From the NCBI GenBank assembly GCA_029258795.1, contig JAPDKB010000008.1, positions 32,001 to 96,000 of the forward strand: a stretch of DNA of 64,000 bases. Reading direction: 5' to 3'. The notes beneath the pieces were generated by a model. That model worked only from the letters and a program-made list of their open reading frames with translations. It was not told the origin of the DNA and did no database searches. Every line of letters begins with the position of its first letter. The stretch's first letter is position 1. Made by a program: the position numbers and the translations under genes. This DNA comes from an archaeon. GTDB taxonomy: Archaea; EX4484-52; WAPT01. Below are positions 33,520 to 51,657 of the stretch, piece after piece.

Positions 33520-36500
33520 ATGCAGTATGACTTCCACAAAATCGAGAAGGAGGTAAAGGAGTACTGGGAAAAGAACAAAATTCCGGAAAGGATTGCTGAC
33601 TTCAATGCCAACCTAAAGACACGTAAAAAGAAATTCTATCTGCTTGATGGACCGCCTTATGCCAACGCCCCTCCTCACGCTGGACATGCCATGACCATAG
33701 TTTTCAAGGATCTCTGGGGTAAGTTCAAGTTCATGAACGGCTATGCTGTCTGGTTCCAGCCGGGTTTTGACTGTCACGGCCTGCCGATTGAGAATATGGT
33801 TGAGAAGAAGTTTGGGATAGGATCAAAGAAGGATATAGAGAACAAGATTGGTGTTGCCAAGTTCATTCAGATGTGTAAAGAATATGCTACTCAAAACCTG
33901 AAAGAATGGATGGAATACTACAAAGATCTTGGAGCATGGAAGGGCTGGCTCACGCCTTACTTAACTTACGAGCCATACTACATAGAGAGCATATGGTGGA
34001 CCGTCAAAAAGCTTTTCGATGAAGGGTTGATGGTTAAGGGCAAGAAGCCCATACACTGGTGCCCGAGATGCCAGACATCCATTTCAGGGTATGAGGCTAC
34101 CGACTCCTACAAAAACGTTACCGACCCCTCCATTTATGTTAAGTTCAAGGTGAAGGATAGGGATAACGAGTACCTGCTCGCATGGACCACAACACCTTGG
34201 ACGCTTCCGGCTAACGTTGCGCTTGTTGTTCATCCTGATGAGACCTACGTTAAGATTGAGGTTGATGGCGAGTATTTAATTCTCGCTGAAAAACGCCTTA
34301 AGGATGTGATGGAAAGAGCTGGCATCAAGGACTACAAGGTTATTGAGAAGTTTGAGGGTAAGAAGCTGGATGGTGTGGAGTACGAGCCATTAATGCCAGA
34401 GCTTCAGACGCAGCAGGAGGCTGCCAAGAGTGGAAAAGCGCACAGAATTGTTATGTCCGTCCCTATTCTGAAGAAGGTTGTTGCCTCCAAGATAAAAGCA
34501 AAGAAAGAGGTTGAGGAGGAAGAGGAAGGAGAAGCTTTTGGTCACATGGTTACCATGGATGCCGGTACAGGCATAGTGCACTGTGCTCCCGGCCATGGAG
34601 CAGAAGACAACAAGCTTGGTGCTTATTATGGCTTGCCAGTAATCTCGCCTGTTGATGATGAGGGCAAGTTCACAAGCGAAGCTGGTTGGCTGGAAGGAAA
34701 GTTTGTGAAGGATGCGGATAAGGAAATAATAGAGCATCTTAAGCAAAAAGGTCTGCTATTCCACGCTGAAAGGATAGTTCACAGCTATCCTCTCTGCTGG
34801 AGGTGCAAAACCCCCCTCATTTACCGCACCACAGACCAATGGTTCTTCCTCATAGACCCAATAAAGGAGATGATGCTCAAATTCAATGAAGAGACAAGAT
34901 GGCTTCCTGACTTTGCAAAGGAGCGCATGAGGAACTGGGTCAAGGACGAGGCGGACTGGTGCATATCGACGCAGAGATACTGGGGCGCGCCAATCCCAAT
35001 CTGGGAGTGTAAGAACTGCGGGCACATGATCGCTGTGGGAAGCAAGAAGGAGCTTGAGGAGAAAATGGTGAACGATGTCAAGCTTGATGACCTCCACAAG
35101 CATGTTGTGGATAAGGTTGTGCTGAAATGTGAGAAGTGTGGAGGGGAGATGAAGAGAATTCCGGACATAATAAACATCTGGGTGGAGAGCGGCGTTGCTC
35201 CATGGGCTTCGCTCGGCTATCCTTATTATGATGGCGGTCTACTCAAAAAGCTGTGGCGCGTTGATCTGGTGGATGAGTCCCAGGATCAAATAAGGGGTTG
35301 GTTCCACGCCATGCTGTTCATGTCCGCTGCCACGTTCAAGGAGAGACCATATAACACCGTTTGCATGAACGGCTGGGTGCTGGATGAAAAAGGAGAGAAG
35401 ATGAGCAAGAGCTTGGGGAACGTGATTTCAGCGGAAGAGGCATTCGAGCAGCTCGGCGCTGATGTGCTCCGCTTGTACGTTTGCTACAGCACAGCTCCGT
35501 GGGAGACACATAAGTTCAGCATGAAGGAAGCAAAGGAACTCTTCCGCTTCATGAACATAATGGTCAATCTTGTCAACTTTGTGGACATGTATGGTGTAGA
35601 TATCAATGTTGATGGCGGCATGCCCAATCTCACCCGTGTTGAGGACAGATGGCTTCTTTCGAGGCTTAACTCCATAATAAGGAAGGTTGAAAGCCACATT
35701 GAAAACTTCCACTTCCATGCAGCAGCAAGAGAGCTTGTGGAGTTCGTGATGGAGGACTTCTCCCGCCTCTATCTGAAGCTGGTAAAGGAGAGGTATGATA
35801 AAAATGAGGAAAGAGAAGCGATGGATCATGTAATATCCAAGACAATCTTTGATGTGGTGAGAATGCTCGCACCCTTCTGCCCGTACATAAGCGAGTACAT
35901 CTATCTGAAGCTGTTCAAGGATGCTGTTAAGGAGGATTCAGTACACATGTTGGAGTGGCCCGTGGCTAATGAGAAGCTGATTGATGAGAAGTTGGAAAGG
36001 GAGATGGAGCTCGTTATGAAGATTGTGGAGGAACTCAATTCAATCAGGCAGAGCAAGGGCATAAGGTTGAGGTGGCCTCTTGAAGAAGTTGTGCTCTCGT
36101 CCAACGAGATCACTGCAAGGATTGGGGATGACATCAAGGAAGTCATAAAGACGCTTGCAAACGTGAAAAAGGTTGTTGTTAAGGATGTTGAGCTGAGCTA
36201 TGCGCTGAAGCCCAGATATGATGTGATAGGGCCGAAGTTTGGAGAGAAAACAAGAGAGGTTGTTGCCCTCCTGCAGAAACAAAGGCCTGAGGAGCTTTTG
36301 AACCGGCTTGAGGAAGAGGGGGCTGTAATGGTTGGTGAGTTTGAAATAACAAAAGAGATGGTGGATGTTGATGTCAAGCTTGAAAACGTGCCTGCTGGCT
36401 ATGAAGGTGGAGTTGTTGACGGCACAGCTGTGCTTCTCAAGGTTGAGATCGCGCCTGAACTGAAGGAAGAAGGGATAGCCAGAGAGTTCATAAGAAGAGT

Positions 36501-36705
36501 GCAGCTGGCAAGGAAGGAACTTGGCTTAAGGTTTGAGGATGAGGCAAAGCTGCTTGTCGATGGCATGTCTCCTTTCATCAACAAGTGGAAGGATTTGATT
36601 GAGGAAGAGACGAACACGAAAATTGTTGTTAGCGAGCTGAAAGAAGAGAGTGCTGAGAAGTTTGAGTTTGAAGAGGTCAAGCTTATTTTCAGGGTGGAAA
36701 AATAG
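33520..36705 (+). CDS. ileS: Isoleucyl-tRNA synthetase
   Basis: DGPPYAN..PHAGH, GFDCHGLP, WTTTPWTLP, GTGIVH.APGHG, DWCIS.QRYWG, DQIRGWF, KMSKS. Confidence 0.97.
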   Translation: MQYDFHKIEKEVKEYWEKNKIPERIADFNANLKTRKKKFYLLDGPPYANAPPHAGHAMTIVFKDLWGKFKFMNGYAVWFQPGFDCHGLPIENMVEKKFGIGSKKDIENKIGVAKFIQMCKEYATQNLKEWMEYYKDLGAWKGWLTPYLTYEPYYIESIWWTVKKLFDEGLMVKGKKPIHWCPRCQTSISGYEATDSYKNVTDPSIYVKFKVKDRDNEYLLAWTTTPWTLPANVALVVHPDETYVKIEVDGEYLILAEKRLKDVMERAGIKDYKVIEKFEGKKLDGVEYEPLMPELQTQQEAAKSGKAHRIVMSVPILKKVVASKIKAKKEVEEEEEGEAFGHMVTMDAGTGIVHCAPGHGAEDNKLGAYYGLPVISPVDDEGKFTSEAGWLEGKFVKDADKEIIEHLKQKGLLFHAERIVHSYPLCWRCKTPLIYRTTDQWFFLIDPIKEMMLKFNEETRWLPDFAKERMRNWVKDEADWCISTQRYWGAPIPIWECKNCGHMIAVGSKKELEEKMVNDVKLDDLHKHVVDKVVLKCEKCGGEMKRIPDIINIWVESGVAPWASLGYPYYDGGLLKKLWRVDLVDESQDQIRGWFHAMLFMSAATFKERPYNTVCMNGWVLDEKGEKMSKSLGNVISAEEAFEQLGADVLRLYVCYSTAPWETHKFSMKEAKELFRFMNIMVNLVNFVDMYGVDINVDGGMPNLTRVEDRWLLSRLNSIIRKVESHIENFHFHAAARELVEFVMEDFSRLYLKLVKERYDKNEEREAMDHVISKTIFDVVRMLAPFCPYISEYIYLKLFKDAVKEDSVHMLEWPVANEKLIDEKLEREMELVMKIVEELNSIRQSKGIRLRWPLEEVVLSSNEITARIGDDIKEVIKTLANVKKVVVKDVELSYALKPRYDVIGPKFGEKTREVVALLQKQRPEELLNRLEEEGAVMVGEFEITKEMVDVDVKLENVPAGYEGGVVDGTAVLLKVEIAPELKEEGIAREFIRRVQLARKELGLRFEDEAKLLVDGMSPFINKWKDLIEEETNTKIVVSELKEESAEKFEFEEVKLIFRVEK

Positions 36706-36712
36706 GGGTAAA

Positions 36713-36928
36713 TTAGCACACAGCAACATTTATGCCCAGCACATCCAAAAAGCTAACTATGATACTTGCGATATCACAAGCTATTCCCTGAATCTTGTCC
36801 AAAAACCCTCCTTCTTTTGTCAGGAAAATGAAAATAATCATACCTACAAACAGTGCCAGCATTATCAATCCGAACTCAGTTAATCCAAGCTCAATCCCCT
36901 TTCGTCTCATGGTGAGTTGATGGTTCAT
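36713..36928 (-). CDS. Small pilin-like protein (class III signal peptide)
   Basis: RRKG|IELGL followed by hydrophobic helix. Confidence 0.6.
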   Translation of the reverse strand: MNHQLTMRRKGIELGLTEFGLIMLALFVGMIIFIFLTKEGGFLDKIQGIACDIASIIVSFLDVLGINVAVC

Positions 36929-36941
36929 GCTAATTCTACCT

Positions 36942-37049
36942 CTAAGGTCTTCCTAAATAATTGAAAGCTGTAGCAAAGAGCACATATAACAGCAATAGCC
37001 CGAGTAAAAGCATTAACAGAAGGCTGACCGAAAGGCCTGCTTTTTTCAT
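36942..37049 (-). CDS. Very small pilin-like/hydrophobic peptide (35 aa)
   Basis: MKKAG|LSVSLLLMLLLGLLLL; manual translation. Confidence 0.4.
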   Translation of the reverse strand: MKKAGLSVSLLLMLLLGLLLLYVLFATAFNYLGRP

Positions 37050-37093
37050 CCTTACCACAACATATTTAAGGGAGGACAACAGATTTATAAGTT

Positions 37094-37288
37094 ATGTACT
37101 GCTCTTTAAGGAAAAGAAAAGGAGCTTCATATATAGAAATCATATTTTTGGTGTTATTGCTTGCATTCATCACATTTTTGTTTGTGGCTTTGTTCCGGCA
37201 CTGGGACATTAGCCTGGATGAAAAGGTTAAAAATGCTTTTGACACTGTTATGGCGAAAGCTCAGGAAAAGTTCGGGGTGGTGTTTTAA
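37094..37288 (+). CDS. Small pilin-like protein
   Basis: KRKG|ASYIE (E at +5) followed by hydrophobic helix. Confidence 0.7.
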   Translation: MYCSLRKRKGASYIEIIFLVLLLAFITFLFVALFRHWDISLDEKVKNAFDTVMAKAQEKFGVVF

Positions 37289-37480
37289 ATGGGAAGGAAG
37301 GGTATGGATAAAGTGGTGTGGATAGTTCTGAGTGTGTTATTAGCATTTGTTGTTGTTTATTTAGCTATCAAAATAACGGGTGGTAGCTTTTTTGGGTTTG
37401 AAAGCCTAGTACATAGTGGGCTCGAAGAATCAAACCAAACAATTAATGAAAGCATAGAAAATATAACAAAAGGTTGGTGA
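37289..37480 (+). CDS. Small pilin-like protein
   Basis: RKG|MDKVVW followed by hydrophobic helix. Confidence 0.7.
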   Translation: MGRKGMDKVVWIVLSVLLAFVVVYLAIKITGGSFFGFESLVHSGLEESNQTINESIENITKGW

Positions 37481-37486
37481 TGTGTT

Positions 37487-37993
37487 ATGAGACCGCTGAA
37501 AAAAGGTTTCTCATTTTCTATATCCACCATAGCAGTGATTTTTCTCGTAGTGATAGTGATAGCCATCATTATTAAGTTCTATGGGGGAAGTATAGTTCCC
37601 CATCTCAATACTACTAAACTCAATATAGGTAGACTTGGTAATGTTACTACCACTATCGTTAATGAATCAACTTCCTCTTATCTCAACCCCTCAGGTGGCT
37701 CATCCAGTAGCTCATCTTATACTTTGACTCTATCGAATATGGGTGCTGGAAGCGGTAATAATTGTACCATAAACCTCAATGTCACTGATTCAAACAACAA
37801 GCCAGTTCCGAGTATAACCGTTACCGCACGGTATGACACCACATCTTCGAGCTGTACAAGCCAGAATGATGGCTCCTGTAAGATAGAAATTCCAAAACCT
37901 AGCCAAGAAGTAAACGTCTCTATCACTTGTTCTGGTTGCAATTCATTATGCATTAAAACAAACCCCTCATGTGGTAATCTGGGTGGGTGTTAA
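37487..37993 (+). CDS. Pilin-like protein with Ser linker and Ig-like Cys-containing domain
   Basis: KKG|FSFSI followed by hydrophobic helix; VTDSNNKPV Ig-like motif; many N-x-S/T sequons. Confidence 0.75.
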   Translation: MRPLKKGFSFSISTIAVIFLVVIVIAIIIKFYGGSIVPHLNTTKLNIGRLGNVTTTIVNESTSSYLNPSGGSSSSSSYTLTLSNMGAGSGNNCTINLNVTDSNNKPVPSITVTARYDTTSSSCTSQNDGSCKIEIPKPSQEVNVSITCSGCNSLCIKTNPSCGNLGGC

Positions 37994-38157
37994 TGAAAAT
38001 TACCAAAAAAAGTAAGGGTTATTCTTGGCTGGAGATAATATTTTTTGTGCTGTTGCTTTCTGCATTGATATTTATTCTCATGAAATTCGGTAAAGGAGCG
38101 ATAGATAAAATATTGGGGCTTGCTGACCTCGGTTGGGAGAAAGGAGGGTTGAAATGA
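37993..38157 (+). CDS. Small pilin-like protein (54 aa)
   Basis: KSKG|YSWLE (E at +5) followed by hydrophobic helix; TAATG and ATGA overlaps with neighbours; manual translation. Confidence 0.7.
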   Translation: MKITKKSKGYSWLEIIFFVLLLSALIFILMKFGKGAIDKILGLADLGWEKGGLK

Positions 38158-38396
38158 ACAGGAAAGGACTGGTAGGAAGTCAGATCATGCTCATCATCTA
38201 CATAGTTATTTTTATAATCTGTTTAGCTCTTGCTTACATAATTCTTAATAAAATAGGCGTGCCCATTGTTGATACTTTGAAGAGGCAGTGGGGCTGGGTT
38301 AGCACAGTGGTCAAGACAGTGAGCTTTATTGGAAATGCCATTGATACTGTGATGAACATAGCTGGCAAGATATGGGGTTTTCTCACAGGCGGATAA
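38154..38396 (+). CDS. Small pilin-like protein
   Basis: NRKG|LVGSQ followed by hydrophobic helix. Confidence 0.7.
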   Translation: MNRKGLVGSQIMLIIYIVIFIICLALAYIILNKIGVPIVDTLKRQWGWVSTVVKTVSFIGNAIDTVMNIAGKIWGFLTGG

Positions 38397-38419: not shown

Positions 38420-38824
38420 GTGGAAAGTATGGATGAGAAAGCGAGGTCGATAGAGGTTTCTGGAAATAGCATAATCATTACTCTATCTCCATCGTTGTAT
38501 TCCAAAAACGCGGTAATGCGGGCCGCTTACAGGATGCTGGGTAATTGCAGCGCCAGGGTGCTGGGAGATGGCATAAATTCATTATCCGTTGAGCTGAGAG
38601 TGCTTGATGATGATGGGAGGGTGGACAAAGAGGATTTGGTTGACGCTTTTTTCGCTGAGCTGCTTCAGGCGGAGATGGAAGAGATTAACATGCGCAAATT
38701 CGGAGATGTGAGGAAAATGCTTCTTGAACTTGCCATAAGAGGGCTTGCAGCAGGAAAAAATGCAAATGTGGGTCAAAATCAGGATAATAAAGGTGAGGTG
38801 AATGAGGAAGAAAGAATTGTTTAG
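38420..38824 (+). CDS. HxsD-like accessory protein of His-Xaa-Ser-type radical SAM systems
   Basis: LYSKNAVMRAAY...F.AELL...VRKMLL pattern; next to paired radical SAM genes. Confidence 0.7.
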   Translation: MESMDEKARSIEVSGNSIIITLSPSLYSKNAVMRAAYRMLGNCSARVLGDGINSLSVELRVLDDDGRVDKEDLVDAFFAELLQAEMEEINMRKFGDVRKMLLELAIRGLAAGKNANVGQNQDNKGEVNEEERIV

Positions 38825-39092
38825 AAAACTCAGATCTCTTGTCAAACCACCTCAACTCAATGATGATGGGGCATTGAATGTGCTCACACTTCTTGCAATT
38901 ATAAGTGCGCTCCCTCTCCTTTCCAAGCTCGCTCACTCAGTTGTAACTCATGAATGCGTCACCAACAAACAGGAATGGAGTGAGGTGGAGGGCGAGTACA
39001 ATACTTGGCTTCATAATGAGTGGAGCAACTGGATAGAGTGGGCTGATTGGAAGGAATGGTGTGAGTGGGGAAAGTGGGGAAACGGTGGTTAG
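38802..39092 (+). CDS. Putative RiPP precursor with (Trp-X-X)7 core
   Basis: SD GAGGTGA; basic N-terminus, hydrophobic segment, then WSN WIE WAD WKE WCE WGK WGN. Confidence 0.85.
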   Translation: MRKKELFRKLRSLVKPPQLNDDGALNVLTLLAIISALPLLSKLAHSVVTHECVTNKQEWSEVEGEYNTWLHNEWSNWIEWADWKEWCEWGKWGNGG

Positions 39093-39096
39093 ACAG

Positions 39097-40008
39097 ATGA
39101 GACTCATGCTCAAGAAGGCTTACTGCGTGTTCGGATATCAGTGCAACAATAACTGCAGGATATGCGCGGTCAGCTCGCAGGAGAGAGCGAGAAAGGAGCG
39201 GATCGGCACGGAAGAGCTCGTAAACTTTCTTATAGGGCTCCCACGCGAAATAAGGATTGTGGAGATTTCTGGAGGGGAGCCAACAATAAGAAGTGATTTT
39301 TTCACCGTTCTTGAAAAGGTAAGCAGTGAAAAACCCCATCTGAAATATCATCTTCTCACAAACGGAAGAATGCTGTCTTCAATCACCTTTGCGGAAAAAC
39401 TTGCAGACCTCCCTGTGGATTTCATAATTACGGCTCTTCACTCCGCCACACCGGAGAGACATGACTGGATGACCAGAGCTGAAGGAAGTTACATGCAGAC
39501 CATACAGGGTGTGAGAAACGCTTTAGATATGGGGTTTCGAGTCTCCCTAAAAACAATTGTGAATAAATCTAACTACAGAGAGCTGGAAAATATAGCAACT
39601 TTTGTCTGCTCTAGGTTTGATGACATCGATTTCTTTTCTTTTCACGCGCTTGACCTGACGGGAAATGCTCTTAAACACGCTTCCGAAGTTGCCGTAAGGA
39701 TGAGTGAAACCATCGATAATCTTCTTAGGGCTGTGACCATCCTTGACTCCTCGGGAATTAGAGTCAGGATATATGGATACCCTTACTGCATGGTGTCCGA
39801 AGACCTCTGGAAATATATTGCACCACAACCAAAACTGATTTACGGATATAAATCTCCATCACTGGAAATTGTAAACCAGAAATTTGATGATAACTACGGT
39901 CTGCTCGATGTTTGCGAGGGCTGCTCGCTCAGATACAAGTGCTCGGGATTGTGGTATACTTATGTCGAGTTTTTCGGCAAAGATGAGATTGTGCCAGTAG
40001 GAGGGTGA
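39097..40008 (+). CDS. Radical SAM enzyme, HxsC-like
   Basis: CNNNCRIC, SGGEPT, LTNGR, PYC, C-terminal CEGC...C. Confidence 0.88.
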   Translation: MRLMLKKAYCVFGYQCNNNCRICAVSSQERARKERIGTEELVNFLIGLPREIRIVEISGGEPTIRSDFFTVLEKVSSEKPHLKYHLLTNGRMLSSITFAEKLADLPVDFIITALHSATPERHDWMTRAEGSYMQTIQGVRNALDMGFRVSLKTIVNKSNYRELENIATFVCSRFDDIDFFSFHALDLTGNALKHASEVAVRMSETIDNLLRAVTILDSSGIRVRIYGYPYCMVSEDLWKYIAPQPKLIYGYKSPSLEIVNQKFDDNYGLLDVCEGCSLRYKCSGLWYTYVEFFGKDEIVPVGG

Positions 40009-41387
40009 AGGACGTGTACCTACTCAACGATGTACTCGAAGATAAATTGGACGGGAACAGAACTCTTCTCACCACGAGGTATGGAAGCTGGGTCATACTT
40101 ACAGAGGATGATGTAAAGGCTCTGAGGTCCGGCAAGGCTGATGAGGAACTTCTTCAGAAGCTGGAAGAGGCGGGGATCATACTCACCGAGAGGAACATCA
40201 GATCAGAACTGGAAAAAATCGTCAGGAGGTTTGGATACCTTTACAATATGCCGTTTCTCAACGTTCAGATCAATCTGACCCTGAGGTGCAATCTTTTATG
40301 CAAGTATTGTCACGCAAACTCTAGTCCAAGCTCAAGGCTGGAGATGGACAGAGATATCCTGCTTGATGTCGTAAGATTCCTTGAGCGCCTGCCGAAAACC
40401 TACATTTCCCTCGAATTTCAGGGTGGAGAACCCTTTCTCAAGTTTGACCTAATGGAGGAGCTCGTCGAGAGGGTGCGGAATGAGGTCAAGGATAAAAAGG
40501 TGGTCGAGACTGTGGTGATTTCCAACGGCACCGTTATCGATAAGGATATAGCAAGGTGGGTTGCTAAAAATAACGTTTCTGTTTCCGTGTCGCTTGACGG
40601 TCCGAAGGAAATGCACGATTCTCAGCGCGTTTATCCAAATGGCAAGGGAACTTACGAAGATGTTTTGCATGCCATCACACTGCTGCGGGATGCCGGGGGT
40701 TTTCCAACTTCCACCGCGACCATCACAAAGAACACCGTTAAGCTCGGAGGTGCGGAAAGGGTGATTGAGGAGTATGTTAAGAGGGGGTTTCCATTCATCT
40801 TTTATAGACCCATCATGGATGCGGGGCGTGGGGAGGATAACGAGGAGCTTGCACTGAGAGCTGAGGAGTTCTTCGAGTTTGTTAAGGGAAGCATTGAGAA
40901 GGTTGTGCAGCTGAAGCGTGAGGGTGTTGTTTTTAGGGATAAGTTTGTCGAAAAATTCCTTCAGAATATTTTTGGAAAGGGTACGCGTTCCTATTCATGT
41001 CTGCGCGATGTGTGTGGGGCAGGAATTACGCAGCTCGTGGTGGCTCCGGATGGTTGGCTGTATCCGTGTGATGTTATGAAGGTCTTGCCGGAATTCCGGG
41101 TCGGAAGGCTCGAGAACCAATACGAGGAAGTTATGATGAATGTGCTCAACAGCATGATGGTTCTGCCGGACATCTCCGCTGAGTGTCCTTCCTGTCCCTA
41201 CATAGCGTTCTGCGGTTTCTGCAAGCGGTGGAACTACGGAATATCCCGCTCACTGCTGCCGTACCACTTCCTGAGCGAGGACTGCAAATTCAAAAAAATG
41301 TTTTTCAAGTACATATTTCAGAATCTGAAATTCTTCCGTAAAAATGTGGACTGCTTTGTGGTTGAGGAGGGAGTGAGGTATGACTAG
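40005..41387 (+). CDS. Radical SAM/SPASM peptide maturase, HxsB-like
   Basis: N-terminal extension (LLTTRYGSW), CNLLCKYCH, EFQGGEP, SLDGP..MHD, CGAG...YPCD, CPSC...CGFC. Confidence 0.9.
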   Translation: MKDVYLLNDVLEDKLDGNRTLLTTRYGSWVILTEDDVKALRSGKADEELLQKLEEAGIILTERNIRSELEKIVRRFGYLYNMPFLNVQINLTLRCNLLCKYCHANSSPSSRLEMDRDILLDVVRFLERLPKTYISLEFQGGEPFLKFDLMEELVERVRNEVKDKKVVETVVISNGTVIDKDIARWVAKNNVSVSVSLDGPKEMHDSQRVYPNGKGTYEDVLHAITLLRDAGGFPTSTATITKNTVKLGGAERVIEEYVKRGFPFIFYRPIMDAGRGEDNEELALRAEEFFEFVKGSIEKVVQLKREGVVFRDKFVEKFLQNIFGKGTRSYSCLRDVCGAGITQLVVAPDGWLYPCDVMKVLPEFRVGRLENQYEEVMMNVLNSMMVLPDISAECPSCPYIAFCGFCKRWNYGISRSLLPYHFLSEDCKFKKMFFKYIFQNLKFFRKNVDCFVVEEGVRYD

Positions 41388-42174
41388 CTGCTTTCGCTAT
41401 TTTTATCTGGTTTCCGCCCTCATCATGATTATCCTTGCGTTTCACATAACCAAAAGTTTTGTTCTCACATCCGCTCTTGTGTTCGCTTCCTTTTTTGGAG
41501 CAACCCTTCTTGCCATCGGGAAGGAATATGGATGGAGTGTTGTCTTTTCTGCATTTCACACAGCTATGAAAACACTCTCTCTTCTTATGCTTTCATTCAG
41601 TTTGCTGTTTTCCCTCTGCAAACAGGCGGTGGATATTAATTCCTTTTTATTGTTCATCCTGCTACTTTTCTCTTCGGTGAGTGCAGGAGCGATTGTGAAG
41701 CGTGCAGAAAATGTGTTGAGGTTCTGGCATGCGCTGCTACTTCTTGGATTTGCGCTTTCCGTTTACTTCCACTTTTACTTCATTTTTCTCAAAATTTCGG
41801 CCTTGCTCTTCATGATTTACGCAACCCCTTCCCTTACAACCCTACAGGTTGAGGTCTCTGAAAAGATTGTGGGAGAGTTCCCCGCAGAGATTGTGAAGGT
41901 CAGCAAGAAAGGTGTGAAAAAGGAAAGAATTTCTGTTTCTAAGATCAGGCTGGCACGCGCGGCCTTTTGCATCAGTAAGGGAGAGGTTATTGCCCAGCCC
42001 TTCAGAAGGCTGGATGATGCAGCGGTGAAGCTGTTGAAGAAAGCAGGGGTTAAGGAAATAAGGATTCAGAGGAAGGTGCTCCCGCAAAATATCTTTTTTC
42101 TTTCGATTCTCCTGTTCTTCCTTCTTATCCTTCTGGTAGCTCTACTGAATACGTTCCGAATGACTGTGGTGTGA
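41380..42174 (+). CDS. Multi-pass membrane protein; C-terminus resembles archaeal prepilin peptidase C-terminal domain
   Basis: About five TM segments, soluble loop GEFPAE...LLKKAGVKEIRI, final TM; no clear GxGD. Confidence 0.6.
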   Translation: MTSCFRYFYLVSALIMIILAFHITKSFVLTSALVFASFFGATLLAIGKEYGWSVVFSAFHTAMKTLSLLMLSFSLLFSLCKQAVDINSFLLFILLLFSSVSAGAIVKRAENVLRFWHALLLLGFALSVYFHFYFIFLKISALLFMIYATPSLTTLQVEVSEKIVGEFPAEIVKVSKKGVKKERISVSKIRLARAAFCISKGEVIAQPFRRLDDAAVKLLKKAGVKEIRIQRKVLPQNIFFLSILLFFLLILLVALLNTFRMTVV

Positions 42175-44353
42175 TGGCTGTATTGGAAATTATATCGTCA
42201 GGCACACACGTCTCTGTTCCTCCGTTGCATTTGTTGTCATCAACATTCACGTTCACGATGAATCGCAGAACTACTGGAGTCCACTTATTCTGCGAGACAT
42301 CGAAGAGCTTGTATTTGGAATCGATAATTTCAACCAGTATTTTCAGATCCTTGAAGATGTAACGGTGGTAGTATTTCATAGTGCATTTGTGCCAATAATT
42401 CCATGCGATTTTGCACTTCCACTTTGGACAGCAATATTTATAACAATCCACATGAGGGGGTGGTTTCTGGATTAGCACCTGCCTTTCCACATGAATCAGG
42501 TTCTTATCTGTCCCTTCAATCTCCAGACCGCATCCAGAAGTGATGGTTTCGGTTACGGTTTTTTTTGCAAGCGTGTCTTTGTTTTCCACGAGTTCATTGA
42601 TTAACTCGTCTATTCGTGAAATGTAAGAATTATAGCTGCTATTTACGGTTAAGCAGAAGTCATCTATACTAGTTGTGTGTATACTTGAACATGCTGATTG
42701 AATGGAGTTGCACAAATCGTAAATATAGGGGGAATTGCAATATTCTTCAAGTTTTGGTGTGGTATCGTGAAACACAGAGCTAGGCAAATGGCCTGAACAA
42801 ATTACATTTACTCCCTCTTTTAGCGAATTACACCTAGAAATAAGATCTGAGCAATCTTCGTCCGTGACTGTTCCGGCTGCGCATATCGTGTCTATTTCTC
42901 TTCCCAGATCTTCCCTATCCGGGTTATAACCCATGAAATCGTTTATTGCGTTAAGTGTGTCATCATCCGTTCTATCAAGGGTGATGCTTCCCGCTTTACT
43001 CGGTGTTGCACTGTCACAGCACGGCTTCTTGTTGTCGTTCACACTCTCCCAAACATGCTTATCATCAAGATAGATGAGCTTCCATCCTATTCCTTCTGCA
43101 GAGCTCGCATTGAGATCGGCTTCAAGCTCGCTGAGAGCGCTTGTTATGACATTTTCAAAATCTGCTTCACCATATGTTGGTGTCTTATCCTCAGGACAAT
43201 CGTTACAAGTTAAAGGTCTGCAAACTTCCTCGCTTTCCTCTGTATAGTAATCCTGTAGCTTTTCATTGGACTTTTCAAATATCTTCCTTATCAACCATTC
43301 CTCAATGTTATCCACAAAGGTGTTGCCATAGTTCACCATCAATCCAAGCCTGGTGGAAACGTTCGTTTCGGTAAACATGTTGGAATGCAGCATGACCGTG
43401 ACCTTACCCTCTCTAGAAACTCTCGTTACGTTCATCCCTTCACTCATCCACACACTTCCGTGGATAGTATTTGTTGATGGGTCAAAAGTCACGTTGGGTT
43501 TTGATCCTTTGAAAGTCATACCATACATGTTGGTGGGTGTCCCTCTATAGTACTGTTCAAGATACCTTTCCATTATTTCCTGAATCATATCTCTACCACA
43601 ACCTACAGCGGAAAACTTGTTGGAGTCCTTATGCTTGTATATGGTCGCCACGATTCCGCGAAGCTTAACAGTATTGTTTCTGGATGCTTTGATTTCTATT
43701 CGATTTCCTTCTATAGAATCCCCTTTCAGGAAGTAAACACCCGTGTGATTTGCATTCATTAGTATTGTGCCTCCTGATTTTATAGTCACTGTCGCGTTTT
43801 TGAGGAAGTAGAGAGTTAGCATAACCTCTCCGACTCTGAACCCGGGATCCACGCTGAACTCTATAGTGGTGGGCACTCTTCCAATCCACCCATTGAAATC
43901 CTTGAAATATGAGATGGGTTTGTAAACCTGCATCCCTGTTCCCTCCGCTTGAACCCAGTAGAGCACATACTCTCCATCAACATCTTCTATCCTCATACAA
44001 CCCCTATCCACACCCTCAAAATTCACTCTCATGTTCAGAACGTACTTTCGATTGCCGCTTTCATAAGTTATACCGTTTTCAGCTATGAGCTTGGACGTTA
44101 TCATTCCATGCGATGCGTAGTCAAGAACTGTTTTCATCATCGCAAATATTAGCGCTGGCTGTTCCTGACTTTCCTTTATCATCGATATCTCGAATTTCCC
44201 TTTCTCTATGAAATTTCTCAGCACTTCACCCTCTATTATTTGCATCGCCTCAAAAGTTCTGGTTAGCATAACCCAAGAGGCAAAAGCTACCCACACCATC
44301 AGGAGTAACGCTACTGCCAAAACCGATGCAAATCCCTTATCCCTATCTTTCAT
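42125..44353 (-). CDS. Large Cys-rich extracellular protein with class III-like signal peptide (minor pilin/adhesin)
   Basis: DKG|FASVL followed by hydrophobic helix; many Cys. Confidence 0.75.
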   Translation of the reverse strand: MKDRDKGFASVLAVALLLMVWVAFASWVMLTRTFEAMQIIEGEVLRNFIEKGKFEISMIKESQEQPALIFAMMKTVLDYASHGMITSKLIAENGITYESGNRKYVLNMRVNFEGVDRGCMRIEDVDGEYVLYWVQAEGTGMQVYKPISYFKDFNGWIGRVPTTIEFSVDPGFRVGEVMLTLYFLKNATVTIKSGGTILMNANHTGVYFLKGDSIEGNRIEIKASRNNTVKLRGIVATIYKHKDSNKFSAVGCGRDMIQEIMERYLEQYYRGTPTNMYGMTFKGSKPNVTFDPSTNTIHGSVWMSEGMNVTRVSREGKVTVMLHSNMFTETNVSTRLGLMVNYGNTFVDNIEEWLIRKIFEKSNEKLQDYYTEESEEVCRPLTCNDCPEDKTPTYGEADFENVITSALSELEADLNASSAEGIGWKLIYLDDKHVWESVNDNKKPCCDSATPSKAGSITLDRTDDDTLNAINDFMGYNPDREDLGREIDTICAAGTVTDEDCSDLISRCNSLKEGVNVICSGHLPSSVFHDTTPKLEEYCNSPYIYDLCNSIQSACSSIHTTSIDDFCLTVNSSYNSYISRIDELINELVENKDTLAKKTVTETITSGCGLEIEGTDKNLIHVERQVLIQKPPPHVDCYKYCCPKWKCKIAWNYWHKCTMKYYHRYIFKDLKILVEIIDSKYKLFDVSQNKWTPVVLRFIVNVNVDDNKCNGGTETCVPDDIISNTAITPQSFGTYSVELPEG

Positions 44354-45042
44354 TTGAACACCTCTGCTGTTGCAATCCCTTCAGGTAACTCTTTGTTATT
44401 GGCATTAACAAATAAGAGTGTGTAATTTACTGCGGGATAATATTCTTCAGATGGTGTAGGGATAAACACTTCCTCCTTGAAAAGATACTTACCCCCAACA
44501 CACTTACCAACATCGTAAGGGTAACGGAGATGGTGCTGCCATGTAGGTGTATTCACAAACTTGTTATAAAAAACTCTCTGGGGAAAGTGTCTCTCCCCAC
44601 TGCCAACTATAGAGGGTAGAGAGGGTGGGGGTGTGCATTCATCCGGCCCTTGCGGAGATGGGAGCATTAGCTTTACTGTGTTGTTCAGATTGACTTTACC
44701 CTTAACACCACCATAATCAATATACACTTCACTCCATCCAGGAATGAAATGATTAACTTGAGATAAATCGTGCTGCGCTCCGTAAGTGTAAATGCCCAGC
44801 AGTTCATCAATCTGGAGTGTGCTGCGCTCACCCGAGTCAAGTGTTGGTTTTACATTGAAGTATGTTAAATAGGTGGATGCGTTTCTCTCCGTAGCGTAAT
44901 ACTGAATTACAGCCCCGATTGACTTGAAATTCTTCAGCCACGGCATGAAAATGGAGATGACTAGTGTTAATGTTATCAGGAGCACGAATACAGGTAGCTC
45001 CAATCCAAGCGCCTTATTTCTGTATTTTTTAAACATCGTCAC
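44350..45042 (-). CDS. Pilin-like protein
   Basis: NKA|LGLEL followed by hydrophobic helix; overlaps neighbours. Confidence 0.7.
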   Translation of the reverse strand: MTMFKKYRNKALGLELPVFVLLITLTLVISIFMPWLKNFKSIGAVIQYYATERNASTYLTYFNVKPTLDSGERSTLQIDELLGIYTYGAQHDLSQVNHFIPGWSEVYIDYGGVKGKVNLNNTVKLMLPSPQGPDECTPPPSLPSIVGSGERHFPQRVFYNKFVNTPTWQHHLRYPYDVGKCVGGKYLFKEEVFIPTPSEEYYPAVNYTLLFVNANNKELPEGIATAEVFK

Positions 45043-45518
45043 CGCCCTTCAAGAGTTACGTTCAGGTATGTGAATTCCACGATTACTGGATATCCGTCAT
45101 CTGTGGATAGATGATACTTCATGGTAGCGTTTAGTTTTTTCCCTGCCACGTTTTTGAAGGTTTTTCTGGAAAGTACATTATTAAAGTCTGGAGTGTAGAT
45201 TGTTATGTTGAGAATGTATTCAATATCATCTCCAAGACAGGGTAGTGGTGCGCCATCGGGTGTGCTTTCTATAAACGTTCGGTTTAAAATGAACCACCTT
45301 CTATTGTTTAGAGAGTCGTTCGCAAGCAGGCAGCTATCGGTGATTATCTTGTTGGCGTAAGCTTCCATTAATCTGGCTCTGGCTAGCTCATCTATCGTTT
45401 TTGCGTTCATACCGGATTCAGCTTTATATACTAAGAGAGCTGCTGATGCGATTATGATGAGCACCATGGCACTAAATACCTGGGTGTATGGGAGCCCTCC
45501 TTTCATTGCTTTCAACAT
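45039..45518 (-). CDS. Pilin-like protein
   Basis: MKG|GLPYTQ followed by hydrophobic helix. Confidence 0.7.
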   Translation of the reverse strand: MLKAMKGGLPYTQVFSAMVLIIIASAALLVYKAESGMNAKTIDELARARLMEAYANKIITDSCLLANDSLNNRRWFILNRTFIESTPDGAPLPCLGDDIEYILNITIYTPDFNNVLSRKTFKNVAGKKLNATMKYHLSTDDGYPVIVEFTYLNVTLEGR

Positions 45519-45997
45519 ATATTCTCACCTATATTACAGCAGGATTTATTCGATGCATCGCAGATCATTATATATGGAGTGCAGTTCAAAATCTTCTTGA
45601 CCACGCACAACTCTTCAGCATTGGTTACTGCGGAGCTAACCACATTGGATATGTTGTGACGAATATGATAGGTTATGTTCCTTGAAGGGGTGTGAAGCAC
45701 AACCACCAACTTGGAATCTGTCAAATTGACTGTAAATTTTGGGGTTATTGATGTGTATATACTGTATCCTTGTTCCGAAGAGGAAATTTCCAAGAGGAGT
45801 GCGTAGATGGTGGAAGCTGTGTTTTTGGCTATGATTCTCGAATCCATAAGTATTTCTCTGTAAGAATTCAAGTAATATGATGCGACCAAGAACGCAATAA
45901 TTACCATTATGCCCGTAACTACTAACATGGTCTGCGTCTCGTCCTCCATTGATAGAAATTTGTGTTTCAACCCATATAAAGCTTGAGAAGTAGGCAT
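45512..45997 (-). CDS. Membrane-anchored pilin-like protein
   Basis: N-terminal TM, C-terminal Cys cluster; start uncertain. Confidence 0.6.
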   Translation of the reverse strand: MPTSQALYGLKHKFLSMEDETQTMLVVTGIMVIIAFLVASYYLNSYREILMDSRIIAKNTASTIYALLLEISSSEQGYSIYTSITPKFTVNLTDSKLVVVLHTPSRNITYHIRHNISNVVSSAVTNAEELCVVKKILNCTPYIMICDASNKSCCNIGENIC

Positions 45998-49730: not shown

Positions 49731-51557
49731 TTAATCAACCAGCACCCTCAGATTGCCAAGTGCAACGGCCTGCAGTACTTTCTTGCCGGCATCGCTCTTC
49801 TTTTTGACCCTTATCTGCCCTCTCTTGCCTACAGTTGCAGAAAAGAGAAACTCCTCGCCCTTGTAAACATCAACGTTCTTGCCGACCAGCTTTCTGTCCA
49901 CCTCGATGATAACCGAGCCGGAAGCTTCCCTCACCCTGAAGGGTATGGCTTTTTTCAACGTGTCAACTATCGGCTCGACAGAAAGCCTTATGCCAACGAG
50001 CTCCTCCAGCTTGGCTATGTTCCTGCCCTCCTTACCAATAACTTTCGGCACATCCTCCTTCTTCACCCTCAGTACAGCTCTGTTCGGTCCGACTATCTCA
50101 ACGCTGAAGTCCTTTATGTAGCGCTTCAGAATTTGAGTGAGCCGCTCCTCAGCAAGCTTGGCTATGGTCGATTCCTTAGCTTCCCGGACCTTCATCACCA
50201 CCGTCTGCTCTCCGTAGGTGTAAATCTCGTACTCAAGCTTGCCCGTCTCAAAATCTATGACCTCCACTATTGGCCTCGCAAGGTCCTCAGCGGTCATGCC
50301 AGAAGGCACGCGCACATTCAAGTCAAGCACGTAAACCTTCTCTATCCTTCCGTTCTTCACGAAAATTATCGTGTCCACTATATGCGGAATCAAGCCCAGC
50401 TCAACTCTTTGGATGAAACGCTGCACCGCATCTATTGGCTGGGTGGCATGAACCACACCCACCATCCCAACTCCCGCTAATCTCATATCCGCAAAAACCT
50501 TGAAATCGTGGGTGGTGCGCAGCTCATCATAAATGGTGTAGTCGGGCCTCACAAGCAGAAGTATGTCTGAGGTTTTGGCCATGTCTCCTTCAAGGGGAGC
50601 GTATTGAGTTATCTCTGCGCTGACCTGCAAATCTCTCGGCTGCTCCATGGTTTTGACTATCTTGCCCTTGGACGCGTAGAATTCAGCGAGAGCCTGAGCA
50701 AGCGTGGTTTTTCCATGACCGGGAGGGCCGGCTATCAGTATGCCCTCAGCCCTCTCTTCCAGCCTTTTCTTCAGCTTGTCCGAGAGCTTGTAGTCCTCAA
50801 GCGTGACCTTCAGAATCGGCCTAACCAGCGTTATCTCCATCGCTTCAGAGAATGGTGGGCGTGTTATCGCTATCCTGTAGGAGCCAAGCTGCACAACGGT
50901 TGCGCCCTTCCTGCTTATCTCCACCATGGCCTTTTCGTCCATTCTAGCGCGTTCCATTATCTCTCTCGCAAACTCCTCCAGCATCTCTCTGGTCAAGACC
51001 ACATCATCCACATCCACCAGCTTGAAAGCTCCAGGCTTTCCTCTCTTTGCCTTTGGTCTGCACCCTTCCTTGAGGTGAAGAGACATCGTGTCCTTCGTGA
51101 TCCACCTCTCTATTGATAGCTTTTCCGGCATCTCGTGCTCCACATATATGATCTCTATACCCAGAGCTTCAGCACCCTTGGCTTGGATCATATCGCATGT
51201 TATGAGCACACCACCCATCTCTTTGGCAACGTCTCTTATGAGCGCGTCTATCCTCCCGCTCCTCGCAAGCTGAATCTCCTCAAGCGTGGGCTTTCTTCCT
51301 GCCTCTTTAAACTCGATCCCCCTCTTTTCACATTCCTCCCTTATCATCTTGAGCTCCTCAAGCCCCTCTATCCCTATCTCTCTTCCCCTGTTGGCCTGAT
51401 TTTCAAGCTCAGAAATCACGAATTCAGGAACAACTATGATGTCGTTCTTCTTTATTCTTCCTTCTTCCATCAACCTTCTTACCACTCCAGCGATTATGGC
51501 TGAAGTGTCAGGTACATACACTTTTCCTTTTGTTTTGCTTTTCGTTTTGCTTCCCAT
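49731..51557 (-). CDS. PIN-domain ATPase with KH domain (PINA family)
   Basis: VPDTS PIN domain, GPPGHGKT, YDELR, IGKEG KH motif. Confidence 0.93.
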   Translation of the reverse strand: MGSKTKSKTKGKVYVPDTSAIIAGVVRRLMEEGRIKKNDIIVVPEFVISELENQANRGREIGIEGLEELKMIREECEKRGIEFKEAGRKPTLEEIQLARSGRIDALIRDVAKEMGGVLITCDMIQAKGAEALGIEIIYVEHEMPEKLSIERWITKDTMSLHLKEGCRPKAKRGKPGAFKLVDVDDVVLTREMLEEFAREIMERARMDEKAMVEISRKGATVVQLGSYRIAITRPPFSEAMEITLVRPILKVTLEDYKLSDKLKKRLEERAEGILIAGPPGHGKTTLAQALAEFYASKGKIVKTMEQPRDLQVSAEITQYAPLEGDMAKTSDILLLVRPDYTIYDELRTTHDFKVFADMRLAGVGMVGVVHATQPIDAVQRFIQRVELGLIPHIVDTIIFVKNGRIEKVYVLDLNVRVPSGMTAEDLARPIVEVIDFETGKLEYEIYTYGEQTVVMKVREAKESTIAKLAEERLTQILKRYIKDFSVEIVGPNRAVLRVKKEDVPKVIGKEGRNIAKLEELVGIRLSVEPIVDTLKKAIPFRVREASGSVIIEVDRKLVGKNVDVYKGEEFLFSATVGKRGQIRVKKKSDAGKKVLQAVALGNLRVLVD

Positions 51558-51657
51558 TTTCAATTCACCAGAACATTCAATTCTCTACCACTTTTAAAAA
51601 AGTTGTGGGAAAAAGAAAAAAAGCTCCCTGCTGCTGCGCTTCTTCTTTCAAGCTGGC

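Follow-up and report, generated by a model that had tools for sequence, protein, structure and literature searches.

The closest described relative of the gene cluster reported here is the bacterial HXS system (HxsA–D, TIGR03976–03979), which combines a small HxsD protein and two radical S-adenosylmethionine (radical SAM) enzymes, HxsB and HxsC, with a repeat precursor. Hxs was a bioinformatic curiosity from 2011 to 2026, when bacterial HXS was shown to be an anti-phage system that blocks the entry of phage DNA (PMC13128918). The same study describes HxsA as a protein with a signal peptide that is processed at its N-terminus only when HxsB, HxsC and HxsD are present and that acts in the periplasm, and its model has the basic repeats bind DNA (PMC13128918). 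The chemistry is unsolved: the modification measured on HxsA is +8 Da on one HxS motif, which is still unexplained (PMC13128918). According to the same study, 99.7% of HXS systems belong to Pseudomonadota, and the survey of HxsA covered bacteria only (PMC13128918). A second point of comparison is given by the triceptide synthases, radical SAM/SPASM enzymes which join an aromatic residue to the Cβ atom two positions on and accept Trp or His (PMC11499958). Here, we analyze an archaeal operon at positions 38420–42174 of a 64,000-nucleotide (nt) window (contig JAPDKB010000008.1, 32,001 to 96,000). The operon probably represents a Trp-repeat branch of the Hxs radical SAM protein-maturation systems, the product of which would be modified, exported and act at the cell surface with partners from a pilin locus.

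Coordinates are positions within the window throughout, and residue numbers refer to the window's peptide. The open reading frame (ORF) listing gives five ORFs on the + strand that abut their neighbours or overlap them by 4–32 nt, and a Shine–Dalgarno-like GGTG/GGAGG stretch lies upstream of each. The gene order is D-A-C-B-E, where A is the precursor (lengths in amino acids, aa):

38420..38824, + strand: HxsD-like small protein (D), 134 aa, matching NCBIfam TIGR03976
38802..39092, + strand: precursor peptide, 96 aa, identified from its translation, alignment A2 and leader homology
39021..39083, + strand: (Trp-X-X)7 repeat of the precursor, WSN WIE WAD WKE WCE WGK WGN; the W74 codon begins at nt 39021 and WGN ends at 39083
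39097..40008, + strand: HxsC-like radical SAM enzyme (C), 303 aa from ATG, matching TIGR03977 and Pfam Radical_SAM
40005..41387, + strand: HxsB-like radical SAM/SPASM enzyme (B), 460 aa, best match TIGR03978
41380..42174, + strand: membrane protein E, 264 aa, with homologues 3′ of the HxsB-like gene in Trp-type loci

The ATG at 38429, preceded by GAGGTG, is a likelier start for D than 38420. The HxsC-like ORF extends over 39061–40008 (315 aa) when read from a GTG; the alternative ATG at 39097 falls after the stop codon of the peptide gene. The ORF listing and the family scans bear out the five overlapping or abutting genes of the initial annotation, namely those for an HxsD-like protein, a 96-aa peptide, two radical SAM enzymes and a membrane protein. 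The host had been judged a probable DPANN archaeon, which fits the source genome of 1.17 Mb (completeness 96.3%) and the naming of some relatives as Candidatus Aenigmatarchaeota or Nanohaloarchaea.

Comparison of the three maturation proteins with curated families gives HxsB, HxsC and HxsD as the best NCBIfam matches, in line with the proposed Hxs-type gene set, although none of the three reaches its curated equivalog cut-off. First, C matches HxsC TIGR03977 with 177.4 bits (E 2.9e-52, cut-off 267.9), about 97 bits above the next model. It also matches Pfam Radical_SAM with 74 bits, contains the CX3CX2C motif and is kept 3′ of the peptide gene in related loci. B matches HxsB TIGR03978 with 265.5 bits (cut-off 370), followed by PapB with 150.7 bits (cut-off 340). 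In Pfam it matches Radical_SAM and, weakly, SPASM, and it has the CX3CX2C motif as the invariant residues C95/C99/C102, together with eight further conserved C-terminal Cys residues for SPASM-type clusters. Other models that score B include DynA NF041298 (118.7 bits, cut-off 450), SCIFF (97.4, cut-off 425), the QhpD-type TIGR03906 (90.8 bits), YhhB NF041707 (79.8, cut-off 445) and WgkB NF050035 (77.9, cut-off 650). By cut-off, B lies outside the darobactin/dynobactin (DynA) and ranthipeptide/sactipeptide (PapB, SCIFF) maturase families. The TIGR03978 cut-off of 370 also separates the two kinds of HxsB-like enzyme: all five HxS-type enzymes scored lie above it (407.6–606 bits; one from the window's phylum), and all three Trp-type enzymes lie below it (265.5, 279.7 and 299.7 bits). 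A predicted complex of B with the peptide from alignments A1 and A2, run without controls, obtained a score of 0.00 and a mark of 0.32 and speaks neither for nor against binding.

Regarding D, its sole NCBIfam match at E < 1e-3 is HxsD TIGR03976 (E 5e-8, 33.2 bits, cut-off 50). The published HxsD motifs are LYW and LLNDYxLRE (PMC13128918). D has LYS in place of the former and FFAELLQAE in place of the latter and so departs from HxsD in both motifs. Homologues of D head 11 related Trp-type loci. The AlphaFold model of D (predicted local distance difference test score, pLDDT, 76) has a beta-beta-alpha-beta-beta arrangement and a long helix. A Foldseek comparison of this model with the PDB gave no match at E ≤ 0.001; the best E value was 3.8e-3, with template modelling (TM) scores of 0.43–0.50, and the top matches were Rpb11-like subunits with TM scores of 0.35–0.50. 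A PqqD-type RiPP recognition element (where RiPP denotes a peptide that is made by the ribosome and modified after translation) was considered for D and rejected on this fold search alone, with a model of moderate quality. At one related locus the HxsD-like protein (L037:1078–1740) has a C-terminal extension with a putative Fe–S motif (Pfam FeS PF04060, E 1.8e-5), and several other D homologues terminate in C-G-x-C.

The 96-aa peptide is very probably the substrate of this Hxs-like maturation machine, judging from its sequence and position. Its gene has a strong ribosome-binding site, GGTGAGGTG, 1 nt before the ATG. Retranslation gives Trp at residues 59, 69, 74, 77, 80, 83, 86, 89 and 92, Tyr at 66, His at 45, 50 and 71, and Cys at 52 and 87; the Trp, Tyr66 and His71 positions and the nt 39021–39083 span of the repeat in the initial annotation are thus exact. 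With 200,000 shuffles in each case, a run of seven Trp residues at a spacing of 3 never arose when the whole peptide was shuffled and arose 4 times when only residues 57–96 were. Residues 1–20 form an N-region with a net charge of +6, and they are followed by a hydrophobic helix at about residues 22–45, with a hydropathy maximum of 2.4 over residues 27–41. The sequence A-H-S at residues 44–46 precedes an acidic core (residues 47–96, net charge −7) that contains the invariant Cys52. Read by eye, this N-terminus resembles an extended Sec-type export signal with an A-x-A/S site, and small residues occupy −3 and −1 in all 13 aligned precursors. In alignment A2, which contains these 13 peptides, G23, C52, W74, W80, W83 and W86 are invariant, and the residues between the Trp positions vary, which points to selection on the Trp residues themselves. 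Trp is a reasonable but tentative candidate for the residue that is modified, at somewhat less than an even chance. The window's peptide matches no NCBIfam or Pfam family and contains no H-x-S in its 96 aa; His45, His50 and His71 precede SV, EC and NE, respectively.

The cluster recurs in the window's phylum, which we sampled with 42 species genomes, all of one order. An HxsB-like gene is present at E ≤ 0.001 in 32 of the 41 genomes searched, and we compared 28 loci around the best HxsB-like matches. The order D, small ORF, C, B is found in many of these loci, across several families, and in every locus with this order the small ORF encodes about 92–116 aa with a four-part layout and a Trp-rich core. 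The parts are a basic N-terminus with the consensus M-S-x-x-D-K-x-K-K-I-R-K; a hydrophobic part, E-K-T-G-V-x-N-G-L-V-L-L-G; a short stretch that has small residues at −3 and −1 and precedes the invariant Cys; and the Trp-rich core at the C-terminus. A six-frame profile search located the peptide in 19 of the 42 genomes, corresponding to 7 of 13 genera and 5 of 8 families. In a profile search of 1.84 billion representative proteins, 17 clusters matched at E ≤ 0.001, and the leader is common to all of them. A Trp-rich tail with 5–11 Trp residues is present in 16 of the 17, and P0014 retains 3 Trp. One member is named in its source, as 'hypothetical protein'; so small and unannotated a family is easily missed. 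Trp-rich cores were found in every readable cluster of the Trp branch, and homologous clusters without such a peptide, which would have spoken against the initial annotation, did not appear there.

The spacing of the Trp residues is less constant. Among 185 Trp–Trp gaps in 28 distinct members, a gap of 3 is found 63 times, 2 56 times, 5 28 times, 1 15 times and 4 14 times. W-x-x spacing is seen in the window's genus, in two further groups and in two metagenomic members, and the others show W-x-W-x-W or WW-D-H-x (1+4). A strict W-x-x register is therefore not a property of the family, since relatives show spacings of 2 or 1+4. What the cores have in common is a dense run of Trp surrounded by Cys, Asp/Asn and His, often opening with W-x-N/D-H-C-W.

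This variation bears on a reading developed from the initial annotation, in which the product would be a conventional RiPP, a diffusible antibiotic or signal, and each of the seven W-x-x units would form a three-residue cyclophane with a loss of 2 Da. The aromatic to Cβ +2 chemistry known from triceptides, with Trp or His as the aromatic partner, would suit both H-x-S and W-x-(N/D/E), as both fit aromatic-X-X (PMC11499958); the window's peptide offers seven such triplets, and 3 is the commonest gap in the family. However, gaps of 2 (56 of 185) and of 1, 4 or 5 (57 of 185) do not follow this register, though W-x-W and W-W-D also allow a +2 partner, and the scores of B lie far under the YhhB and DynA cut-offs given above. 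In addition, the sole Hxs modification measured is +8 Da and not −2 Da (PMC13128918), and a core of about 50 aa, a signal-like leader and the link to surface-protein genes are unlike known triceptides. We consider this reading rather improbable as a whole. Because the register is not conserved and the spacing varies, seven tandem crosslinks from Trp to the +2 residue are only one of several hypotheses, and every spacing variant would still allow Trp to be joined to its +2 residue.

The likeness to triceptide systems such as XyeB, YhhB, HaaB and HtkB consists of a radical SAM/SPASM enzyme beside a peptide with repeated aromatic-X-X units, here seven W-x-x (PMC11499958). The differences are the second radical SAM enzyme and HxsD-type protein, the variable Trp spacing, a much longer precursor with putative export, and a score below the YhhB-family cut-off.

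The relation to systems with His-x-Ser precursors is closer. A scan of 185,579 species genomes gave 556 HxsB relatives, and we examined the best 80 of the 556. Among these 80, most relatives in other archaea and in many bacterial phyla are accompanied by a precursor of similar layout with a (His-x-Ser)n core, often ending in HSSY. These precursors match NCBIfam HxsA2, HxsA3 or HxsA4, in some cases with a score that exceeds the cut-off. NCBIfam release 20 contains models for HxsA to HxsA4, but no Hxs-family model is matched by any of the six Trp-type peptides that were scanned; five give at most unrelated matches at chance level (E of at least 0.03), and the window's peptide gives none. At the level of leader profiles, the Trp-type (A2) and HxS-repeat (A3) precursors align by hhalign with a probability of 93.1% (E 3.1e-7) over 52 columns. 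The leaders are thus homologous, and the Trp-type precursor is an Hxs-precursor homologue with a replaced repeat core.

We compared the Trp-type cluster with both described Hxs arrangements. Like HXS, it combines a repeat precursor, export-like at its N-terminus, with a small protein of the HxsD type and with HxsB- and HxsC-type radical SAM enzymes; D, the two radical SAM genes and the precursor are co-located as in Hxs, and this is kept in related loci. Unlike HXS, the genes run D-A-C-B-E instead of D-B-C-A, and the precursor has neither H-x-S nor a peptidoglycan-binding domain. Its core is acidic and Trp-rich, whereas that of HXS is basic. There are also extra conserved partners, E and a large protein with a pilin-type signal, and the host is an archaeon. 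With the HxsA3/HxsA4-type systems (NF038309, NF038313), the Trp-type precursor has in common a homologous leader, basic in both, then a hydrophobic segment and a C-terminal repeat core (70–200 aa). Those systems differ in having (H-x-S)n cores, a peptide gene usually 3′ of hxsB and no large pilin-signal protein at their loci. They are found in Woesearchaeota, Iainarchaeum, Aenigmatarchaeota, Patescibacteria, Omnitrophota, Elusimicrobia and Clostridia, and sister enzymes occur in the window's own phylum (L039–L048).

Several features of the HxS-type (HxsA3/A4-like) systems are worth recording in their own right. They are widespread in small-genome archaea, Patescibacteria, Omnitrophota and Elusimicrobia (L039–L048 and many of L052–L128). 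Their cores hold between one and 33 HxS units, and H-S-S-Y is often found at the C-terminus. Many of the loci consist of just D, B and the peptide gene, with no HxsC-like gene nearby.

We built enzyme trees with FastTree from 103 rows, comprising 99 distinct HxsB-like ORFs (≥ 400 aa, E ≤ 1e-40; L021–L128, exact duplicates removed), the window's enzyme and 3 outgroups, and with IQ-TREE from 51 of these rows, selected by hand so that every Trp-branch row and a range of other rows are included. Of the 16 rows of the Trp branch, 14 have a Trp peptide and 2 lie at contig ends. In both analyses, these 16 and the HxS-associated enzymes are never intermixed. The best tree places the 16 rows in one clade with a support of 41, and the base is unresolved. 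Nesting of the Trp-type enzymes within the HxS-type enzymes was considered as well; in the trees the base stays unresolved, and the single Trp clade of the best one has weak support. From these comparisons, the cluster is best filed as a sister branch of the Hxs family, outside the curated equivalogs. The Trp-for-His variant of Hxs proposed initially thus stands as to enzyme matches, leader homology, the peptide within the enzyme operon and the recurring Trp cores, but not as to membership of the curated families. Literature searches found no Trp-repeat Hxs-type precursor, which agrees with the earlier statement that no described example was known; the distribution tables of the HXS paper could hold archaeal or Trp-type homologues.

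Cys offers another possible target. The enzymes could form a thioether or quinone-type crosslink of Cys with Asp, Glu or Trp, like that in the quinohemoprotein amine dehydrogenase gamma subunit or in ranthipeptides, with Trp being mainly structural or redox-active. The precursors have one invariant Cys, and most cores contain 2–4 Cys residues adjoining Trp and Asp/Glu. The runner-up models for B are also thioether-forming maturases, PapB and TIGR03906, of which the latter gives 112–120 bits for the HxsB-like enzymes of two relatives. However, the PapB and QhpD scores are far under their cut-offs, and many HxS-type precursors of the sister enzymes are without any Cys, so Cys cannot be the family-wide target. 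A Cys-centred reaction is in our view a fairly improbable account.

Variation is also found among the maturation genes of Trp-type relatives. The HxsC-like gene of one family encodes two radical SAM domains fused in tandem, 587–588 aa in all (L034:2292–4055, L035:391–2154 and L036:5445–7211), and no HxsD-like gene was detected at these three loci. L037 has a second, separate HxsC-like gene. In one genus, a gene of the Peptidase_U32 family (Pfam E 2.6e-9) stands between the D and peptide genes (L030:1515–2573, − strand; L033:1020–2069, − strand). The Peptidase_U32 family includes oxygen-independent hydroxylases, and the inserted gene may add a further modification.

The surroundings of the enzymes hold protein E and a set of pilin-like genes:

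36713..38396, strand not stated: seven small pilin-like genes (45–168 aa), directly upstream of the operon, translations read by eye
42125..44353, − strand: protein with a pilin-type N-terminus, 742 aa, convergent with the operon, homologues by tblastn
44350..45997, − strand: three pilin-like genes (230, 159 and 161 aa) in the same minus-strand row as the 742-aa gene

Protein E begins with about six hydrophobic segments, followed by a soluble domain of roughly 80 aa and a single segment at the C-terminus. It matches no NCBIfam family, and its sole Pfam match is at chance level (PF15939, E 0.048, below cut-off). Homologues of 279–310 aa follow the HxsB-like gene in 8 Trp-type loci (alignment A4). 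Five of these 8 members match Pfam PF06819, Arc_PepC (best E 1.7e-9), and the window's copy is below the threshold. Arc_PepC is the C-terminal domain of archaeal A24 prepilin peptidases. The E family thus resembles archaeal prepilin peptidases (FlaK/PibD) and type IV pilin loci in Arc_PepC, in its several membrane segments around a soluble domain and in neighbours that have K/R-G and hydrophobic N-termini like those of archaeal pilins. It differs in that the GxGD/GxHD catalytic motif was not found in 7 of the 8 members and E has no Peptidase_A24 match. E as an active prepilin peptidase was rejected, as the catalytic motif is lacking. A search of the E profile against PDB sequences gave a single chance-level match, and the ESM Atlas gave no usable match for E or the 742-aa protein. 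The genome's only Peptidase_A24 match is at C3:97188–97556, about 1.2 kb past the end of the window and about 23 kb downstream of the operon. Neither a pilus ATPase gene nor a platform gene was found near the operon, again unlike type IV pilin loci, and T2SSE matches are located on other contigs.

The 742-aa protein begins with MKDRDKG/FASVLAV..., which looks like an archaeal pilin-type (class III-like) signal. At about residues 640–716 it carries a conserved domain in which Cys, Trp, Tyr and His are abundant, and its homologues have in common C-x-M-x-Y-x-H-R-Y-I-L-K-N ... V-D-D-N-C-C. These homologues are 670–1040 aa long and are encoded within a few kb of the Trp-type cluster (for example, L034:6338–9316, L036:43–3165 and L037:6284–8377). 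By tblastn the large protein is present at L021, L022, L024 (=L049), L025, L026 (=L028), L030, L031 (=L051) and L032–L037, and it was not found at any of the other loci examined, L039–L048 and L052–L128. The Trp-type loci without it (L023, L027, L029 and L038) end less than 1 kb from the HxsB-like gene, and it therefore stands beside every Trp-type locus with enough flanking DNA.

Given this strict linkage, the Cys/aromatic-rich domain of the 742-aa protein could itself be a target of the enzymes, and the 96-aa ORF a chance ORF or an unrelated small membrane protein. We regard this as very unlikely: the peptide ORF is kept in position and frame over five families with invariant Trp amid varying neighbours, its gene has the strong ribosome-binding site described above, and its leader is homologous to those of known Hxs precursors.

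In total, at least 11 genes encircling the operon (36713–38396 and 42125–45997) encode a short basic stretch, K/R-G and a hydrophobic segment. The small upstream genes appear pilin-like from a by-eye reading of their N-termini. The seven upstream genes are kept in two genomes of the same genus, as are the 230-aa and 159-aa genes; no match is listed for the 161-aa gene. Neither the 742-aa protein nor the pilin-like genes match a Pfam, NCBIfam or PADLOC family. The 1061-aa ORF that immediately precedes the pilin-like genes (33520–36705, + strand) appears from its translation to encode isoleucyl-tRNA synthetase. Its position is also kept in the two same-genus genomes, and this synteny argues against a recently moved island.

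These surroundings also bear on an antiviral role. As a counterpart of HXS, the matured Trp-repeat peptide might form a barrier outside the membrane that blocks the entry of viral genomes or their attachment. The only characterized Hxs system is broadly anti-phage, with an exported, radical SAM-matured repeat protein as the effector (PMC13128918), and the Trp-type cluster has enzyme homology and an export-like precursor in common with it. Several genomes of the phylum (G022, G034 and G035) also contain an HxS-type as well as a Trp-type cluster, a pattern often seen with defence systems. On the other hand, the HXS model requires basic DNA-binding repeats, whereas the core is acidic here and in most relatives (net charge −3 to −12). 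The neighbours are pilin-like and not defence genes, and the place of the cluster beside isoleucyl-tRNA synthetase, with genus-level synteny, is unlike a mobile defence island. PADLOC-DB 2.0, a 2023 library that predates HXS, gives only generic radical SAM/viperin-type similarity for C and B (43–49 bits), a chance-level restriction-enzyme match for D (E 0.0077, 13.4 bits) and none for six other proteins. An antiviral barrier is thus unlikely, and the acidity of the core ranks it below a pilin-linked role; the two are not mutually exclusive.

A role at the surface together with the pilin-like proteins has, on the genes seen here, an even chance of being correct. The product has the look of a peptide that is exported or displayed at the surface, with ties to pilin-like genes, and does not resemble an ordinary small diffusible RiPP. 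In the mechanism that we propose, the operon would yield the 96-aa precursor, and the basic conserved leader would be recognized in the cytoplasm by the HxsD-like, HxsC-like and HxsB-like (SPASM) proteins. The two radical SAM enzymes, with D as a partner, would covalently modify the Trp/Cys/acidic C-terminal core. By analogy with known systems, candidate chemistries are, in ranked order, Trp-centred C—C or C—N crosslinks, Cys thioethers or a +8 Da change as on HxsA. The hydrophobic segment would then serve as an export signal cleaved after A-x-A/S, so that an acidic peptide of about 50 aa with its Trp ladder is set free at the cell surface. Finally, the peptide would act there with E, which is Arc_PepC-like, and the large pilin-signal protein, inside the pilin-gene locus.

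Several points weigh against this account. D, C and B all score under the curated Hxs cut-offs, and the monophyly of the Trp-branch enzymes is weakly supported (41). As D has no convincing structural relative, its part as a leader-binding chaperone would draw solely on the reported bacterial HxsC–HxsD pull-down (PMC13128918). The export signal and the cleavage site are by-eye readings. The part given to E is tentative, as the window's copy misses Arc_PepC and E is without the A24 catalytic motif, and linkage to pilin-like genes would not by itself prove a common function. At the level of sequence, where homology of the enzymes and the leader, a conserved Trp-rich core and the gene linkage are shown, the case for a Trp-repeat branch of Hxs is nevertheless strong.

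A bolder version, possible but doubtful, is a 'tryptophan ladder' class in which the target of the Hxs enzyme pair has shifted from His to Trp. The pair would crosslink 5–11 Trp residues, spaced by 2, 3 or 1+4, into a rigid aromatic stack. After export, this stack would become part of, or dock on, a pilus-like surface apparatus of small-genome archaea, few of which have been cultured. It might help to attach the cell to a host, form a barrier to viruses or conduct electrons along its aromatic residues, and E and the large pilin-signal protein would be its dedicated partners in processing and docking.

In the Trp-for-His branch, one and the same enzyme pair would act on a second substrate of very different chemistry, and this could help to reveal the HxsB/HxsC reaction. 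A peptide family matured by radical SAM enzymes would here be linked for the first time to genes for pilin-like surface proteins in archaea. The host phylum consists of small genomes, and its surface biology and its dealings with hosts and viruses are largely unknown.

Lastly, elsewhere in the window, positions 49731–51563 (− strand) encode a 610-aa protein that weakly matches T2SSE-type ATPases (24.2 bits). Judged by eye, it looks PIN-like at the N-terminus and KH-like at the C-terminus, and it is apparently unrelated to the cluster.

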